Source: Omnitrophica bacterium GWA2_41_15
GTDB lineage: Bacteria; Omnitrophota; Gorgyraeia; Ghiorseimicrobiales; Ghiorseimicrobiaceae
Reading direction: 5' to 3'
DNA: 64,000 bases
Assembly: GCA_919902105.1 (NCBI GenBank)
Contig: CAKKQO010000023.1
Coordinates: forward strand, 2,128 to 66,127
Part shown: piece after piece, positions 10,542 to 43,956 of the stretch
Position numbering within the stretch: the stretch's first letter is position 1
Layout of the letters: every line of letters begins with the position of its first letter
Made by a program: the position numbers and the translations under genes
Notes under the pieces: generated by a model
What the model was told of the DNA's origin: nothing
The model's database searches: none
The model's input: the letters and a program-made list of their open reading frames with translations, nothing else

Positions 10542-10582
10542 AACACCTACGCGGTGTTACAGGTTAACACCGCGTAGGTGTT
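10542..10582. repeat. Perfect 18-bp stem hairpin between rseP and ispG
   Basis: AACACCTACGCGGTGTTA-CAGGT-TAACACCGCGTAGGTGTT. No T-run follows. Confidence 0.85.
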
Positions 10583-10601
10583 GCAGGTTGTGAAGAACGG
10601 T

Positions 10602-11717
10602 ATGAATATTGTTCGTCGTAAAACAAAAGAAATAAAAATAGGAAAAGTAAAAATAGGAGGCAATAACCCCATTGCTATACAGTCAATGGTAAAGGTTGAC
10701 ACGAAGGATATCGCCGCAGTTATCCGGCAGATAAAAAGTTTAGAAAAAGCGGGCTGTGAAATAGCGAGGGTTGCCGTTAAAGATAAAAATTCGGCCAAGG
10801 CAATAAGTAAGATTAGGCCTAAAATAAATATTCCTTTAGTTGCCGATATCCACTTTGATTATAACTTAGCGCTTTTGGCTGTAAAAAACGGGGTGGATAA
10901 GATAAGGTTAAATCCGGGAAATATTTTTAAGCCTAAAGAGGTGCGCGCGGTAACACTAGCGGCGAAAAGAGCTAAAATTCCCATCCGCGTGGGGGTAAAT
11001 TCTGGTTCGGTCAGAGGGGAATCCAGCGTGGACAACATGGTTAAAAATGCGCAGGATTACATAAAAATGCTGGAAGAATTTGATTTTCATAATATCATAG
11101 TTTCGCTGAAAGCATCAAATATTTTGGATACAGTTGATGCGTATCGTAAAATCTCTAAACTTTGTAATTATCCTTTACATTTAGGCGTGACTGCGACTGG
11201 TACCTCGTATTCGGGGGCAATAAAATCTAGCATTGCTTTAGGGGCGCTTTTATTAGAAGGCATAGGCGATACCATCAGGATATCGCTTACGGAAAAGCCG
11301 GAAGATGAGGTGAACACAGCAAAGATTATTTTAGGCGCCTTAGGGTTACGCCGTTTTGGGCCGGAGATTATCAGCTGTCCAACCTGCGGCAGGTGCGAAG
11401 TGGATTTGGTCAATATAGTTAAGAAACTAGAAAATTCGTTGGCCAGTTGGCCAGTTGGCCAGTTGGCCAGTATAACCGGCAAGCCGGCGGGGCACCCGCG
11501 AGAGCGGGTCGGGCAAGCCGGCAAACCACTAAAGGTGGCCGTAATGGGCTGTGTAGTCAACGGCCCGGGAGAAACCAAAGAAGCGGATATAGGCATTGCC
11601 TTTGGCAGAAAAGAAGGATTGTTATTTAGGCATGGTAAACCCATAAGAAAAGTTCCTGCAGATAGGTGCGTGGAAGTGTTATTAGAGGAAATGAATAAAG
11701 TTTACAATAAACTGTAA
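10602..11717 (+). CDS. ispG: 4-hydroxy-3-methylbut-2-enyl diphosphate synthase (carries a repeat-encoded insertion)
   Basis: [29 protein letters not shown] and GCVVNGPGE motifs. Start moved to ATG 10602 because the TTG at 10578 lies inside the upstream hairpin. Confidence 0.93.
   Translation: [371 protein letters not shown]
11439..11526 (+). repeat. Intragenic GC-rich repeat/palindrome block inside ispG
   Basis: TTGGCCAG x4 tandem (11439-11470) followed by CCGGCAAGCCGGCGGGGCACCCGC-GAGA-GCGGGTCGGGCAAGCCGGC. The ispG frame stays open through the block. Confidence 0.85.
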
Positions 11718-11728
11718 ACTTCCGAGCG

Positions 11729-11748
11729 CCTGCCTGCCAGCAGGCAGG
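11729..11748. repeat. CCTGCCTGCC..GGCAGGCAGG palindrome, copy 1
   Basis: CCTGCCTG-CCAG-CAGGCAGG, 11 nt after the ispG stop. Related copies at 20350-20369 and 43606-43626. Confidence 0.8.
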
Positions 11749-20201: not shown

Positions 20202-20243
20202 AATTACCAGTTACGAGTTACGAATTACTGATTACAATTATGA
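20202..20243. repeat. Degenerate heptamer tandem repeat, 6 units
   Basis: AATTACC AGTTACG AGTTACG AATTACT GATTACA ATTATGA. Confidence 0.75.
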
Positions 20244-20349: not shown

Positions 20350-20369
20350 CCTGCCTGCCGGCAGGCAGG
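20350..20369. repeat. CCTGCCTGCC|GGCAGGCAGG perfect 20-nt palindrome, copy 2
   Basis: Read directly from the sequence. Lies 22 nt upstream of the queH ATG. Confidence 0.85.
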
Positions 20370-20934: not shown

Positions 20935-21125
20935 TTATCTTTGGCATAATTTTAATCAGCGTAGGTTTATTGTTAACCTTCGTTAATAAAATCCCTTTTT
21001 TAGGCCGCCTGCCCGGCGATATCCTGATTAATAAGAAAAATTTCACCTTTTATTTTCCTTTTTCGACCTCAATTTTAATCAGCATCATCCTTTCAATAAT
21101 ATTTTGGCTATGGTCCCGTCGATAA
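20910..21125 (+). CDS. DUF2905 small membrane protein
   Basis: Two TM helices flanking the family signature FLGRLPGDI..NF.FYFP. Confidence 0.7.
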   Translation: MQEIGKTLIIFGIILISVGLLLTFVNKIPFLGRLPGDILINKKNFTFYFPFSTSILISIILSIIFWLWSRR

Positions 21126-22288
21126 AAAAATTTAATAATTATAAGTTACGAGTTATAAGTTTAATTATTTTTTTGTTTTTAACTTATCACTTATCACTTA
21201 TCACTTATAATTATTCCTATGCCCAGCCGCAGAAAAGCCGCAATGTGCGCGTGCTCATTCTTAAAGGGGCAGAAAAATTTGACCTCTACATCAGAGGAAA
21301 ATATGAAATACGGTCACCGGACGGGAAAAATGTTATTAAAGAGGGTAAAGGTATAAATGCGAAGGTTTATGCTGATAATAACGCGATAAATATTTCCGAT
21401 ATTCGTATAAATGAAAATAAAATTATAATCTCTCCAGAGTCAGGGATTTTTTATCTCAATAATCGCCCCTTACGCGGCGGGCTAATTGTAAAAAAAGAAA
21501 ATGACTTAACTTTATTAGTAATCAATTATTTAGATTTAGAAGATTATGTTAAAGGGGTTCTTTTCCATGAAGTTTCGCATCACTGGCCGATTGAGGCGAT
21601 TAAGGCGCAGGCAATAGCCACGCGCACGTATGTGCTTTATCAGGTAGAGGTGAGTAAAGATAAAGACTACGATGTAACCAGCGATATTTATTCGCAAGTA
21701 TATGGCGGCAAAGACGCGGAAAGATACCGTACCATTAAGGCGGCAGAGGAAACTGAAGGCGTGGTCTTAACTTGTAAAGCTAAAGTTTTTCCGGCTTATT
21801 TTCATGCTACCTGCGGCGGGAAAACCGAAGATGCAAGCGAATTATGGCAGACAGACCTGCCTGCCTTAAAAGGCGTTGATTGCGGTTTCTGTTTTAAGTC
21901 ACCGCATTTTAAATGGCAGAAGGTATTTAGCAAAGATGAGCTTATAAAAAGGTTAAATTCTTCAGGGTATCGCTTTACTTCTTTAGAGGGCATCCAAATA
22001 TTAGGCCGCGACAAATCAGGCAGAATCAGAAAACTAAAGTTAAAGTCAAAAGATGGTGACGTGTTTATTCCTGCGAAAGATTTCCGCCAGCTCGTAGGCA
22101 CAAGAGTTATCCGTTCTACTAACTTTGCTGTAAATAAATCCGCAGATAATATCTATTTTGAGGGCTTTGGCTGGGGCCATGGCGTGGGGATGTGCCAGTG
22201 GGGGGCATATTTTATGAGCATTAAAAAATATAAGTATCAGGATATCCTTAAGTTTTATTACCCCGGAGCAGAAATAGAGAAAATATGA
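21110..22288 (+). CDS. SpoIID/LytB-domain protein (peptidoglycan remodelling)
   Basis: Motifs LEDYVKGVL..E, AIKAQAIATRTY, CGG.TED, and C-terminal GHGVGMCQWGA. The N-terminal hydrophobic segment is encoded by repeat DNA, so the start is uncertain (TTG 21104 or ATG 21110). Confidence 0.85.
   Translation: MVPSIKKFNNYKLRVISLIIFLFLTYHLSLITYNYSYAQPQKSRNVRVLILKGAEKFDLYIRGKYEIRSPDGKNVIKEGKGINAKVYADNNAINISDIRINENKIIISPESGIFYLNNRPLRGGLIVKKENDLTLLVINYLDLEDYVKGVLFHEVSHHWPIEAIKAQAIATRTYVLYQVEVSKDKDYDVTSDIYSQVYGGKDAERYRTIKAAEETEGVVLTCKAKVFPAYFHATCGGKTEDASELWQTDLPALKGVDCGFCFKSPHFKWQKVFSKDELIKRLNSSGYRFTSLEGIQILGRDKSGRIRKLKLKSKDGDVFIPAKDFRQLVGTRVIRSTNFAVNKSADNIYFEGFGWGHGVGMCQWGAYFMSIKKYKYQDILKFYYPGAEIEKI
21134..21215. 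repeat. Inverted-repeat plus heptamer-tandem block at the 5' end of the SpoIID-like gene
   Basis: AATAATTATAAGT (21134-21146) pairs with ACTTATAATTATT (21203-21215). ACTTATC x3 tandem at 21182-21202. AAGTTAC GAGTTAT AAGTTTA heptamers. Confidence 0.75.
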
Positions 22289-23558: not shown

Positions 23559-23574
23559 CGATATTGTTGAGAAA

Positions 23575-23630
23575 CGTAAAACTGATGGAATTTCTTATTG
23601 TGTGCTTTCAGAAATTCCATCAGTTTTGCG
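23575..23630 (+). repeat. 21-bp stem hairpin after queA
   Basis: CGTAAAACTGATGGAATTTCT - 14-nt loop - AGAAATTCCATCAGTTTTGCG. The single non-Watson-Crick position is a T:G pair on the + strand. Confidence 0.85.
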
Positions 23631-23681
23631 TACCTCTATAATCTTTAACAGAGCCGAACAGGCTGATTTTGTGAGGGGGTA

Positions 23682-25850
<2,169 letters not shown>

Positions 25851-25854
<4 letters not shown>

Positions 25855-26185: not shown

Positions 26186-26911
26186 ATGCCTAATTTACTT
26201 TATGAAAGGCAGATGCTTCGGCAGGGTTTTAGTTTTGTCGGTGGTGTAGATGAGGCAGGCCGCGGCCCTTTAGCAGGGCCGGTAGTGGCTGCCGCGGTAA
26301 TTTTAAAAAAGACAAAGTTTAAAAATAGAATTGATGATTCGAAAATACTTTCTCCTTTAGCCCGAAAGAGGGCCTATTGCGAGATAGTAGAGAATTCTTT
26401 TTTCGGGATAGGCGTTATTTCCGAAGTAATTATTGACGCAGAAAATATCTTAAAGGCGACTATCCTTGCTATGGAAAATGCCATAACCTCTTGTGTTGAT
26501 AAAATTAAAAAAAATTCTAATGTTTGTTTTTTGATAGACGGAAGAAACATAACGCTTGATATTCCCTGTAAGTTTAGGTGTATCGTTGACGGAGACGCAA
26601 AGTGCATGTCAATTTCAGCCGCCTCTATCGTTGCAAAGGTAACACGCGATCGGATTATGCAGATCTACGATAAGATTTACCCCGCATATGGTTTTAAGCA
26701 GCATAAAGGGTATGGAACGCGCGAGCATATTCTGAATTTAAAAAAAGCAGGGGCATCAGCGATACATAGAAAAACATTTTGTCCGGTCAAGCAAAATCTG
26801 CCAACTGGCGATTTCCGCCAAAGGCGGATCCGCCAAAGGCGGAAGATTTTGTGCGATGCCGCACATGCTTGTGCGGCGCAAGTAAATGTGCAATGCATAA
26901 TATTGCTTTAG
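26186..26911 (+). CDS. rnhB: Ribonuclease HII with a repeat-encoded C-terminal extension
   Basis: [25 protein letters not shown] motifs. The last roughly 30 codons (after ..FCPVKQNL) are read through hairpin repeats. Confidence 0.9.
26814..26880. repeat. Tandem 15-mer mini-hairpins plus a second hairpin at the rnhB/yraN junction
   Basis: TCCGCCAAAGGCGGA x2 (26814-26843), each itself a hairpin. Then GTGCGATGCCGCAC-ATGCTT-GTGCGGCGCA (26851-26880). Confidence 0.85.
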
Positions 26912-42049: not shown

Positions 42050-43111
42050 ATGCTTGAAAAACTGGTTGCAATCGAAAAACGCTATAAGGAGTTAGAAGAG
42101 CTTTTAGTAAAAGAGGAAACCCTCGCCGATAAAGATAAATATCAGGTTTATGCCAAGGAGCTTTCTAAATTATCTAAGATTGTTGAAAGGATAAAGCTGT
42201 TCGATAATAAAAACGCGGAACTAAAAGATTTAGAGCATCTTCTTTCTGAACAGCATGAGGAGAGTTTCTTGGATTTAGCTAAAACTGAGATAGATAAACT
42301 AAGAGGGGAAATATCAGCCTTAACCTCAGAGCTTGAGTCTTTGCTCTCGCAAGAAACGGCAGATAAACAGGAAGAGCTTATTATGGAAATTCGCGCCGGA
42401 ACCGGAGGGCAAGAGGCAAGCCTTTTCGTCGGCGACCTATACCGGATGTATACGAAATATGCCGACGCACGAGGTTTTAAATATGAGGTGATGGCGAGCC
42501 ACCCTACCGATACAGGGGGATTTAAAGAAGTAATCTTTAGTATTTCCGGGAAAGGCGCTTATAAAAATTTAAAATATGAAAGCGGTGTGCATCGCGTTCA
42601 GCGTGTACCGGCTACTGAAAGCTCCGGCAGAATTCATACTTCGACGGTGACTGTCGCTGTATTGGTTGAGCCGCAAGAAGTAGATTTAGTTGTCAATCCG
42701 CAGGATTTAAAAATTGATGTTTACCGCTCTAAAGGCGCAGGTGGGCAAAGCGTAAATACGACGGATTCCGCAGTCCGGATTACTCATCTGCCTACGGGAA
42801 TGGTAGTAACTTGTCAGGACGAACGCTCCCAACTAAAGAATAAAAATAAAGCAATGCGGGTTTTAAGGGCACGGCTTTTAGATAAGACAAAACAGGAAGA
42901 CTTAAATAAAATGACTTCTGAGCGCAGGCTTCAGGTCGGTACAGGCGATAGAGCCGAGAAGATACGTACGTATAATTTTCCTGATCGGCGTATCACCGAC
43001 CACAGGATTAATCTCACCATATACAGGCTTGAAGATGTTTTAGACGGCAATATCAACGAATTTATTGGGCGCTTACAGGAAAATGAGAAGAAGAAAAAGG
43101 CGGCGGTATGA
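42050..43111 (+). CDS. prfA: Peptide chain release factor 1
   Basis: GGQ motif (GAGGQSVNTT), PAT tripeptide region (RVPATES), RASGAGGQ-like context; 353 aa. Confidence 0.95.
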   Translation: MLEKLVAIEKRYKELEELLVKEETLADKDKYQVYAKELSKLSKIVERIKLFDNKNAELKDLEHLLSEQHEESFLDLAKTEIDKLRGEISALTSELESLLSQETADKQEELIMEIRAGTGGQEASLFVGDLYRMYTKYADARGFKYEVMASHPTDTGGFKEVIFSISGKGAYKNLKYESGVHRVQRVPATESSGRIHTSTVTVAVLVEPQEVDLVVNPQDLKIDVYRSKGAGGQSVNTTDSAVRITHLPTGMVVTCQDERSQLKNKNKAMRVLRARLLDKTKQEDLNKMTSERRLQVGTGDRAEKIRTYNFPDRRITDHRINLTIYRLEDVLDGNINEFIGRLQENEKKKKAAV

Positions 43112-43956
43112 CGGAAAAAGAGTTAATTTTAACTAATCTTTTGGAATGTTCCCGGCATGAATTATATTTTAAGAATAAACCGTTAAGCAAGGAGCAAGAG
43201 AGAGAGCTGTCAAAAATACTTAAGTTGCGCTGCGCTGGAGTGCCTCTACAATATATCTTAGGCTTTAGCGAATTTATGGGGATAAAATTTAAAGTAGATA
43301 AGCGTGCACTTATCCCGCGGCCGGAGACAGAGATACTGGTTGAGACGGCGATAAAATATGTATCAAGTATCCCCGCCTGTGGCGGGACAGGCAAGTATCA
43401 AGTATCAAGTAAGAACATTCTAGATATAGGGACGGGGTCGGGTTGTATTGCCGTGAGTTTGGCGAAATTTCTGCCTAATTCAAAAATAACCGCTGTGGAT
43501 ATTTCCCAAAAAGCTTTAGAAATAGCGCGGGAAAATGCTGGATTAAATGGCATTGCTGATCAGATTGAGTTTATGCAGAGTGATTTATTCTCGAAATTCG
43601 AAATTCCTGCCTTGCCGGTAGGCAGGCGAATTTCGAATTTCGATATTATTGTTTCCAATCCCCCCTATATTTGCAGTGATGAGATTAAAAAGCTGCCCAA
43701 AGAGGTACAATATGAGCCAAAGCTCGCATTAGATGGTGGATGTGACGGGCTAAACTATTATCGCCGTCTTATTAAGGAGAGCCCGTCTTTTTTAGGAGAA
43801 GGCGGTTTATTAATTATGGAATTAGGAATTGGCCAACTTGAACAAGTAAAAAATATAAGCGAACAAAGTAAAAGATTTATATTTATTGAGGCAATTAAGG
43901 ATTATAATAAAATAAATAGGGTGATAGTATTAAGGCGGGATAGAGAGAATGGATAA
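43108..43956 (+). CDS. prmC: Release-factor glutamine N5-methyltransferase (carries two repeat-encoded insertions)
   Basis: IPRPETE, LDIGTGSGCIA, IVSNPPYI motifs. Follows prfA. Confidence 0.9.
   Translation: MTEKELILTNLLECSRHELYFKNKPLSKEQERELSKILKLRCAGVPLQYILGFSEFMGIKFKVDKRALIPRPETEILVETAIKYVSSIPACGGTGKYQVSSKNILDIGTGSGCIAVSLAKFLPNSKITAVDISQKALEIARENAGLNGIADQIEFMQSDLFSKFEIPALPVGRRISNFDIIVSNPPYICSDEIKKLPKEVQYEPKLALDGGCDGLNYYRRLIKESPSFLGEGGLLIMELGIGQLEQVKNISEQSKRFIFIEAIKDYNKINRVIVLRRDRENG
43360..43411 (+). repeat. Intragenic hairpin flanked by direct heptamer repeats inside prmC (site 1)
   Basis: GTATCAAGTATC | CCCGCC-TGT-GGCGGG | ACAGGCAA | GTATCAAGTATCAAGTA. Confidence 0.85.
43591..43643 (+). 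repeat. Intragenic 53-nt near-perfect palindrome inside prmC (site 2)
   Basis: TCGAAATTCGAAATTCCTGCC-TTGCCGGTA-GGCAGGCGAATTTCGAATTTCGA. Its core is copy 3 of the CCTGCC..GGCAGG motif. Confidence 0.9.

Follow-up and report, generated by a model that had tools for sequence, protein, structure and literature searches.

We examined a 64-kb stretch (64,000 nucleotides, nt; hereafter the window) of contig CAKKQO010000023.1, which belongs to a Candidatus Omnitrophota metagenome-assembled genome (MAG) named Omnitrophica bacterium GWA2_41_15, and concentrated on a GC-rich block of repeats that lies in frame inside ispG. This gene, also called gcpE and encoding 4-hydroxy-3-methylbut-2-enyl diphosphate (HMBPP) synthase, occupies the + strand open reading frame (ORF) at 10602-11717, with alternative starts upstream at 10590 and 10578, and was assigned through Pfam PF04551 (E 9.5e-133) and through the match of its protein to Aquifex IspG (PDB 3NOY, E 3e-89). 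It sits in a housekeeping cluster ordered uppS-cdsA-dxr-rseP-ispG-proS, an arrangement kept in related loci, and is the single copy of its kind for the methylerythritol phosphate (MEP) pathway in this housekeeping operon. Between rseP and ispG, we also noticed a perfect 18-bp inverted repeat (AACACCTACGCGGTGTTA / TAACACCGCGTAGGTGTT, 10542-10582) that overlaps a possible upstream GTG start of ispG.

A first-pass annotation of the window, made by a model from the letters, had named the gene as ispG and described four tandem octamers followed by an imperfect palindrome, the whole inserted between the second and third cysteine ligands of the protein, adding about 25 residues, and differing sharply in composition from the rest of the gene. 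Most of these points were borne out, including the translation. The octamer TTGGCCAG is repeated exactly and head to tail four times on the + strand at 11439-11470, and Tandem Repeats Finder reports 11438-11471 with period 8, 4.2 copies, 100% match, and a score of 68. Alignment to 3NOY puts the block in frame between CPTCGR (Cys1 and Cys2) and GCVVNG (Cys3), and its GC fraction (11440-11519) is 0.70 as against 0.29-0.54 in the rest of ispG and 0.408 for the whole window. The GC-rich stretch at 11476-11522 likewise agrees exactly with the earlier transcription. Arrays of at least three copies are rare by chance, with a single period-8 array and three period-7 arrays in the window versus 0.05 each in shuffled sequences. 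Moreover, the 16-mer doublet of TTGGCCAG has a single site in the window (0.01 expected). The motif is also absent from the rest of the window, which holds no further copy of either of the two octamers described below.

Anatomy of the cassette and its place in the protein

The block, 88 nt in total, is a cassette that reads (TTGGCCAG)x4-TAT-AACCGGCA-AGCCGGC-GGGGCACCCGCGAGAGCGGGT-CGGGCA-AGCCGGCA-AAC. Its parts, with comparison loci given by L numbers, are as follows.

10602-11717, + strand: ispG coding sequence, host of the cassette (PF04551 E 9.5e-133; PDB 3NOY E 3e-89; structure matches of the AlphaFold2 model)
11439-11470, + strand: array A, four exact copies (TTGGCCAG)x4, with translation running through all three frames; the unit recurs in L074 and L075 at the equivalent position of ispG, in valS of L139, and in pheT of L150
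11471-11473, + strand: TAT, a joint of 3 nt linking array A to array B; TTT in relatives, TTGA in valS
11474-11488, + strand: left part of array B, AACCGGCA AGCCGGC; aligned with the uninterrupted (AACCGGCA)x4-5 of L074, L075, and L139
11489-11509, + strand: nested mini-hairpin GGGGC-ACCCGC-GAGA-GCGGGT, about 21 nt; from its fold and from the length comparison with L074 and L075
11510-11526, + strand: right part of array B, CGGGCA AGCCGGCA AAC, and cassette end; swap boundary just before CCACTAAA at 11526
11460-11516, + strand: codons of IspG residues 287-305, the predicted disordered loop

Here, the unit of array B is an imperfect reverse complement of that of array A, with agreement at six of the eight positions. 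The nested hairpin has a 6-bp stem (11494-11499 and 11504-11509) closed by a GNRA-type loop, GAGA (11500-11503), and accounts for a net 18 nt more than in the uninterrupted cassettes of L074 and L075. Judged from these alignments, what had been called a palindrome reads as a second octamer array of the AACCGGCA type that is split by a small true hairpin, so the earlier description stands for the hairpin but not for the greater part of the stretch, which consists of direct octamer repeats.

Such an abrupt jump in composition might come about if foreign GC-rich repeat reads had been mis-joined into an AT-rich gene. However, an assembly artefact of this kind is effectively refuted, as nine contigs from independent runs and assemblers encode the identical IspG protein. 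The reading frame is kept as well, and at this site other genomes have homologous cassettes. For two of the nine contigs compared as DNA, there are 0 and 3 single-nucleotide polymorphisms (SNPs) across 4.1 kb, with ispG free of them, and at the assembly level none of the nine shows a copy-number polymorphism. Other readings that we weighed and rejected are an intein, an intron, a CRISPR-like array, and programmed frameshifting: the block is plainly an open frame, has none of the motifs that these would call for, and is too short.

To size the insert, we measured the span from CxxC to GCxVNG in 60 outgroup ispG loci from many phyla, which came from a contig scan with IspG that returned 73 loci (three of them Omnitrophota). 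The span is 40 amino acids (aa) in 51 of these 60 loci (range 39-58) and 63 aa in the window, and this gives 23 extra residues, the same figure as is obtained against 3NOY and close to the 25 or so first estimated. None of the 60 loci carries a tandem array at this site. An AlphaFold2 (AF2) model built from a 60-sequence alignment has a mean predicted local distance difference test (pLDDT) score of 90.6 and a confident IspG fold, which matches IspG structures including 3NOY and 4G9P with template modelling (TM) scores of 0.69-0.85. In fact, the sole segment with a pLDDT below 50 is the insert itself (residues 287-305), which is predicted to form a loop between the helix at 269-281, starting at the CxxC motif, and the strand at 311-315, leading to Cys317; this answers the proposal to map the insert on a model and see whether it is a surface loop, which is supported. 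From the topology of the model, we infer that the loop lies at the pole of the [4Fe-4S] domain distant from the cluster. Because successive 8-nt units fall in each of the three frames in turn, the encoded peptide is periodic by 8 aa.

Repeat arrays at the loop site across the Omnitrophota

Among the 120 closest IspG proteins, every one with a named taxon is labelled Omnitrophota or Omnitrophica, and the loop span ranges from 41 to 92 aa. All 14 of the distinct Omnitrophota ispG loci that were read as DNA carry a tandem array of 7- or 8-nt units at the loop site, and the units are diverse. Heptamer arrays include (CTATCGA)x4 in L081, (CTCAATA)x4 in L077, (CTGTCAA CTGTAAA)x2 of the unit class CTGTMAA in L076, and (CGATATA)x4 in L004, and further arrays are a 14-mer x2 in L001, (TTGGCCCG)x4 in L149, and (TTATCCCG)x4 plus (AACGGGCA)x4 in L080. 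Cassettes built as in the window are found in L075 (protein P0011), with (TTGRCCAG)x4-TTT-(AACCGGYA)x4-AAC, and in L074 (P0008), with (TTGGCYAG)x3-TTT-(AACCGGCA)x5-AAC. Here, the three A and five B copies of L074 stand against four and four in L075 and L080, though the total length is equal. The loop spans cluster at 45/52/59 aa and 49/57/65 aa, that is, in steps of 7 or 8 aa that each correspond to three units, and the self-identity of the loop peptides peaks at offsets 7 (13.5%) and 8 (11.2%) as against about 4-5% at other offsets. Short Omnitrophota IspG loops with no array also exist, with spans of 41-43 aa. Over whole loci, rows of period 7 number 39 in 176 kb of Omnitrophota DNA versus 20 in 369 kb of other phyla. 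On these sequence comparisons, the ispG loop is a phylum-wide hot spot for 7- and 8-nt tandem arrays with a fast turnover, and the three-unit length steps and compensated copy numbers are what would be expected as the signature of slippage filtered by the reading frame.

Comparison of the cassette with the gene that carries it gives two different histories. The nearest ispG relatives of the window, L077 (P0003) and L076 (P0002), share 85-87% nt identity with it in the flanks and just 31-41% in the cassette, and the swap has sharp boundaries, between CTAGAAAAT and CCACTAAA (11526). Conversely, the flanks of L075 and L074 are 63-65% identical to those of the window, with third positions at 38-42% (saturated), while the cassettes are 75-81% identical, with third positions at 68-80%. 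For L075 by itself, these values are 63% (third position 38%) in the flanks and 81% (third position 80%) in the cassette. Moreover, in a neighbour-joining (NJ) tree with the loop masked, the ispG genes of the octamer class are scattered among those of the heptamer class. Quick turnover on the one hand and near-identical cassettes in distant hosts on the other speak for repeated acquisition and against vertical inheritance. Separately, the window ispG (10602-11717) and its counterpart in L076 (3876-4982) are mosaic in their nt identity, which is 98-100% over the first 118 codons, 42-78% at residues ~118-176, and 82-98% thereafter, a pattern suggestive of recombination within the gene between lineages of Omnitrophota that are related.

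These data bear on whether the insert is an ordinary lineage-specific protein loop, for instance a docking surface for flavodoxin or ferredoxin, with the DNA periodicity incidental. A homologous peptide, S[WY]PV..L..TGK.ANRQTGKP, is indeed present at the site in about 24 of the 120 Omnitrophota IspGs, which is the observation that the first-pass annotation had named as one that would speak for such a loop and refute the selfish-element reading. Yet at the DNA level these loops are repeat cassettes and not an ordinary conserved loop, and the peptides are alike as a consequence of the same octamer DNA being translated in all three frames. In the nearest relatives, the peptide at this site is unrelated and differs in length, no amino-acid conservation is seen across loop classes, and the same peptide recurs in ValRS and PheT (see below). 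Given also the predicted disorder and the nested hairpins that break the loop at will, we regard a protein-level role of this kind as very improbable.

A second array hot spot lies near codon 138 of ispG in relatives, where the 7- or 8-nt unit again differs from one relative to the next: (AGTTCGCA)x5 in L074 (10417-10455), (AAGGCGC)x4.9 in L080 (6766-6802), (GTCAGGG)x3.6 in L001 (2923-2947), and (AGGACACC)x4 in L148 (its site 1), with further sites in L078 (10416-10451) and L077 (1104-1124). The window has no array at this position (about 11010-11045), where its protein is 7 aa shorter than Aquifex IspG.

The persistence of array positions across the phylum, at these two ispG sites and at one site in tgt (below), could be taken to mean that the cassette acts as a nucleic acid, whether as a ribosome-pausing hairpin between synthesis of Cys1/2 and Cys3, as an element of mRNA stability or processing, or as an 8-bp periodic protein-binding array. 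In keeping with this, the ispG region folds strongly (-52.4 kcal/mol, z -4.7), with array A self-folding via its TGGCCA palindromes, the paired A and B arrays in L080 give a long, regular hairpin with interruptions (z -5.4), and the cassette is far more conserved than the synonymous sites of its flanks. On the other hand, the heptamer arrays found at the same site in most relatives do not fold (z +0.8 to -2.4, a signal that comes mostly from a separate small hairpin downstream), the units differ wholly between close relatives, and some loops are short and array-free (41-43 aa). No Rfam family, terminator-like site, or notable promoter-like site was found in or around the block, and the analogous inserts in unrelated genes follow no shared logic of position. 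We therefore consider a functional nucleic-acid element unlikely.

As a further observation at this site, a small hairpin lies over the P-x-K-V-A codons directly 3' of the array in the window (11526-11538), L081 (10880-10898), L077 (1600-1614), and L076 (4793-4810). Its sequence varies by lineage (GGCCAAT-AAA-ATTGGCC, GCCACT-AAA-AGTGGC, GCAACCC-GTTA-GGGTTGC, and CCAC-TAAAG-GTGG), and palindrome-making template switching may account for these lineage-specific forms.

Related cassettes in other genes and contigs

A metagenome scan for (TTGGCCAG)x3 returned 63 loci, none of them in ispG and one inside a gene, the rest being intergenic in contigs of about 60% GC. The exception is valS of L139, which holds (TTGGCCAG)x4-TTGA-(AACCGGCA)x4-AAC in frame, as a clean 23-codon insertion between residues that are neighbours in Thermus ValRS (206/208). 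The genes next to it, compared by tblastn with the Omnitrophota loci, gave no more than paralog-level matches. A profile of the cassette peptide, run against 1.84 billion representative proteins, led to a further case at the N-terminus of PheT with KKLASWPVSQLVSSTGKPANRPTGQPAN. Here, pheT of L150 contains an A/B cassette and, some 200 nt downstream, another array of the A type, in which a doublet of hairpins is nested (TCCGCCGAAGGCGGA-TCCGCCCATGGCGGA, the doublet listed below for three sites). The L150 cassette (466-580) puts pheT out of frame by +1, and one unit more or two fewer would mend the frame; the shift is either a product of natural slippage or a mistake in assembling this contig, which is 968 nt long. 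Duplicated flanks were found at none of the ispG, valS, or pheT copies. A word-indexed search with the 41-aa cassette peptide against 5.8 billion proteins gave nine short spurious ORFs, a search in which the known IspG carriers were also missed. Scans of viral contigs for the two octamer arrays produced 0 and 1 matches, which gives no link to phages.

Independently of coding sequence, long intergenic (TTGNNCAG)n arrays followed by inverted (CTGNNCAA)n arrays occur in metagenomic contigs of about 46-65% GC, as large hairpins with octamer-periodic arms at gene ends, and some of these inverted pairs join TTGGCCAG with AACCGGCA as the ispG cassette does. The contigs are the following.

L126, 2640-2800: intergenic inverted arrays
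L133, 2250-2480: intergenic inverted arrays
L124, 2340-2560: intergenic inverted arrays
L103, 3797-4000: intergenic inverted arrays
L098 and L141: intergenic inverted arrays

Such inserts are a habit of the genome and not peculiar to ispG: within the window, arrays or hairpins also lie in frame in tgt, in trmD, at two sites of prmC, and in a gene for a SpoIID-like protein. The tgt insert (24522-24587, in the ORF 23990-25162) consists of the heptamer arrays AGTCCAT/AGTCAAC ... ACTATGG/ACTATCG, which form a hairpin with 19-bp arms (z -5.9), and lengthens the protein by 12 aa relative to solved Tgt structures. In the 120 closest Tgt proteins, of which all named ones are from Omnitrophota or Omnitrophica, there is one hypervariable loop at this same position, of 25, 32, or 39 aa, with a self-identity of 18% at offset 7 versus about 5% at other offsets. 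These loops also show the peptide signatures, of the "CLPARQG" type, of the nested palindrome. In trmD (ORF 25153-25854), (AGAACTA)x4.3 at 25375-25404 is in frame and adds 5 aa relative to solved TrmD. In prmC (ORF 43108-43956), (CAAGTAT)n surrounds a CCCGCC-TGTG-GCGGG hairpin at 43360-43411 (+11 aa), and at 43586-43648 the insert (TCGAAAT)x2-CCTGCCTTGCCGGTAGGCAGG-(CGAATTT)x2 makes a near-perfect hairpin (z -6.2; +7 aa). Lastly, the SpoIID-like ORF (21104-22288) carries an inverted pair (ATAAGTT/TTACGAG) and (ACTTATC)x4 at 21124-21210, which encode a hydrophobic N-terminus. A related TTACGAG array is intergenic at 20204-20228, upstream of queH and about 900 nt upstream of the SpoIID-like array.

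Smaller palindromes recur within these arrays and apart from them. Array B of L148 is broken at the same place as that of the window, by the perfect 20-nt palindrome CCTGCCTGCCGGCAGGCAGG, which is also present in the window at 20350-20369 and, with one change, directly after the ispG stop codon at 11729-11748, where no T-run accompanies it. Palindromes of the form CCTGCC..GGCAGG have five sites in the window (1624, 11729-11748, 19059, 20350-20369, and 43606) versus 0.02 expected, and CCCGC-loop-GCGGG hairpins, the type found in the window cassette, have five versus 0.34 expected. Array B of L078 holds a 105-nt insertion, part of which (TCCCTCGA...TCGAGGGA) recurs reversed in the ispG cassette of L149; this shared hairpin of about 32 nt is thus found in both orientations, and in L149 another hairpin is nested inside it. 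Moreover, a TCCGCC-RAA-GGCGGA hairpin doublet (TCCGCCRAAGGCGGA-TCCGCC..GGCGGA), similar to REPINs, the hairpin doublets of repetitive extragenic palindromic (REP) sequences, is common to distant genomes, with the sites given here.

Window, 26813-26844: near a gene end
L078, 9919-9948: intergenic
L150, 809-838: in an octamer array inside pheT

With slippage in view, the ispG array could be read as a contingency locus for phase variation, in which the gain or loss of one octamer toggles ispG. Four perfect 8-nt units are able to slip, a change of one unit either way shifts the frame, lineages differ in copy number (A3+B5 versus A4+B4), and pheT of L150 is one octamer out of frame. However, four copies are few for an efficient switch, nine independent assemblies share the identical in-frame allele, and the L150 frameshift may be an error in its short contig. 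A single-copy MEP-pathway gene in a housekeeping operon is also no plausible candidate for adaptive switching, and tgt, trmD, prmC, valS, and pheT, with similar arrays, are implausible contingency genes. Consequently, we give phase variation very little weight. The wider claim of the first-pass annotation, that the tract is prone to slippage, is in part upheld, as the 3+5 versus 4+4 copy numbers, the three-unit steps, and the L150 frameshift support it comparatively, but not by any copy-number polymorphism in the nine assemblies.

Origin of the cassette and likeness to known repeat systems

We favour the reading, at a probability of roughly 0.65, that the ispG block is a tolerated, slippage-prone, and probably mobile composite repeat cassette in a permissive loop, and not native IspG sequence. 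It is composed of array A, a 3-nt joint, and array B as an imperfect inverted copy of A, with B itself invaded by the GC-rich hairpin of about 21 nt. It would be translated, and the disordered, cluster-distal loop of 23 residues would tolerate the extra residues, the cassettes presumably making no contribution to catalysis. The arrays would change by replication slippage, and only those states that keep the frame persist, either through three-unit steps or through the loss of a unit in one array offset by a gain in the other. Both the cassette and the nested hairpins would then be small mobile or copy-pasted selfish elements. Mobility is suggested by the occurrence of the cassette in valS and pheT, by a phylogeny discordant with that of the gene, by a GC content foreign to ispG, and by hairpins nested in either orientation.

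Several observations weigh against this reading. The NJ tree is a rough one, and L139 and L150 are metagenomic contigs, although their intergenic DNA has this style of repeats. We found no target-site duplication or conserved target sequence, and no transposase among the genes annotated here, no wider transposase search having been made. Neither octamer has a second copy in the remainder of the window, so that multi-copy status within the genome is not shown, and the absence of copy-number variation in the nine assemblies means that no ongoing slippage is seen in the population. Lastly, the similarity of distant cassettes could be explained by selection at the nucleotide level or by biased regeneration of the same units, and (TTGGCCAG)n and (AACCGGMA)n arrays also lie between genes in unrelated contigs of about 60% GC.

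As a possible extension, which we put forward tentatively, the Omnitrophota and perhaps other phyla might harbour undescribed tiny mobile elements, namely hairpins whose arms are non-triplet tandem arrays of 7-8 nt units. Driven by some enzyme or by a template switch, such elements would arrive or form anew at hot spots that already bear hairpins or arrays, including fixed permissive loops of the essential proteins IspG, Tgt, ValRS, PheT, PrmC, and TrmD, and would serve as landing pads for smaller palindromes and as a frame-filtered source of disordered segments.

The first-pass annotation had compared the block to the Rickettsia palindromic elements (RPEs), which are summarised as being about 100-150 bp long, with conserved consensus and peptide families and dozens of copies per Rickettsia genome (Ogata et al., 2000, summarised in PMC10969869). 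Part of this comparison stands, as both are small repeat elements that lie in frame in unrelated housekeeping genes, are translated, occupy sites tolerated by the fold, and are read as selfish DNA, here from the valS and pheT copies and the discordant phylogeny. Nevertheless, the ispG cassette is not an RPE, and fails on length, architecture, and taxon. At about 70-90 bp, the cassettes consist of paired arrays with a non-triplet unit of 8 nt and of a nested hairpin, whereas RPEs are not built from tandem arrays; the consensus is a different sequence, shared with the cassettes in other ispG genes, valS, and pheT; and the host is a Candidatus Omnitrophota and not a member of Rickettsia or the Rickettsiales, with no second copy in the window.

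The building blocks match the short tandemly repeated repetitive (STRR) heptamers of cyanobacteria, which are reportedly accompanied by nested small dispersed repeats (SDR). These systems share with the present case the arrays of the 7-nt class scattered in the genome and the hairpins of about 20-30 nt that nest in arrays and in each other. They differ in being mainly intergenic, whereas here the repeats lie in fixed permissive loops of essential proteins in another phylum, are translated, and form inverted pairs.

For long simple sequence repeats (LSSR) of 5-11 nt units, heptamers are described as over-represented in some genomes, which is attributed to polymerase slippage (Mrazek et al., 2007, summarised in PMC4679880 and PMC4692102). 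In the literature, units inside genes are reported as usually divisible by three and heptamers as mostly intergenic. The ispG array belongs with LSSR/STRR-type arrays in having at least three head-to-tail copies of an over-represented 5-11 nt unit, but departs from LSSR in that its non-triplet units lie mid-gene in essential genes, where total lengths quantised in three units, or arrays that compensate each other, keep the frame.

[quoted passage not shown] The inverted A/B symmetry, the TCCGCC doublet, and the presence of the same A/B cassette at non-homologous sites (ispG, valS, and pheT) resemble these elements. The cassettes are set apart by the lack of a target-site duplication at the three copies, and here neither a REP-associated tyrosine transposase (RAYT) or other transposase nor a high copy number has been demonstrated. 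In Borg elements, rapidly evolving tandem DNA repeats in ORFs are described as giving rise to new intrinsically disordered segments (PMC9879509). Borgs, however, are archaeal extrachromosomal elements, and the repeats are not in conserved loops of bacterial core enzymes. Their within-gene repeat units are said to be divisible by three.

Full-text searches that paired either name of the phylum with terms for tandem repeats, heptamers, or palindromes turned up no prior description of such cassettes. If confirmed, the present reading would mean that, throughout a phylum, essential and deeply conserved enzymes put up with non-triplet repeat cassettes at set positions and keep swapping them, which would amount to a natural experiment on dispensable core-protein loops and on frame selection in microsatellite evolution. 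It would also extend the Rickettsia paradigm of "selfish DNA inside proteins" to an unrelated, uncultivated phylum with another architecture, and would flag a source of errors in annotation and alignment, and of spurious small ORFs, in MAGs of the Omnitrophota. Likewise, the cassettes could be of use as fast-evolving strain markers.

Elsewhere in the window, we noted a 33-nt inverted repeat after queA (23563-23642), whose arms are 85% complementary and separated by a 14-nt spacer.

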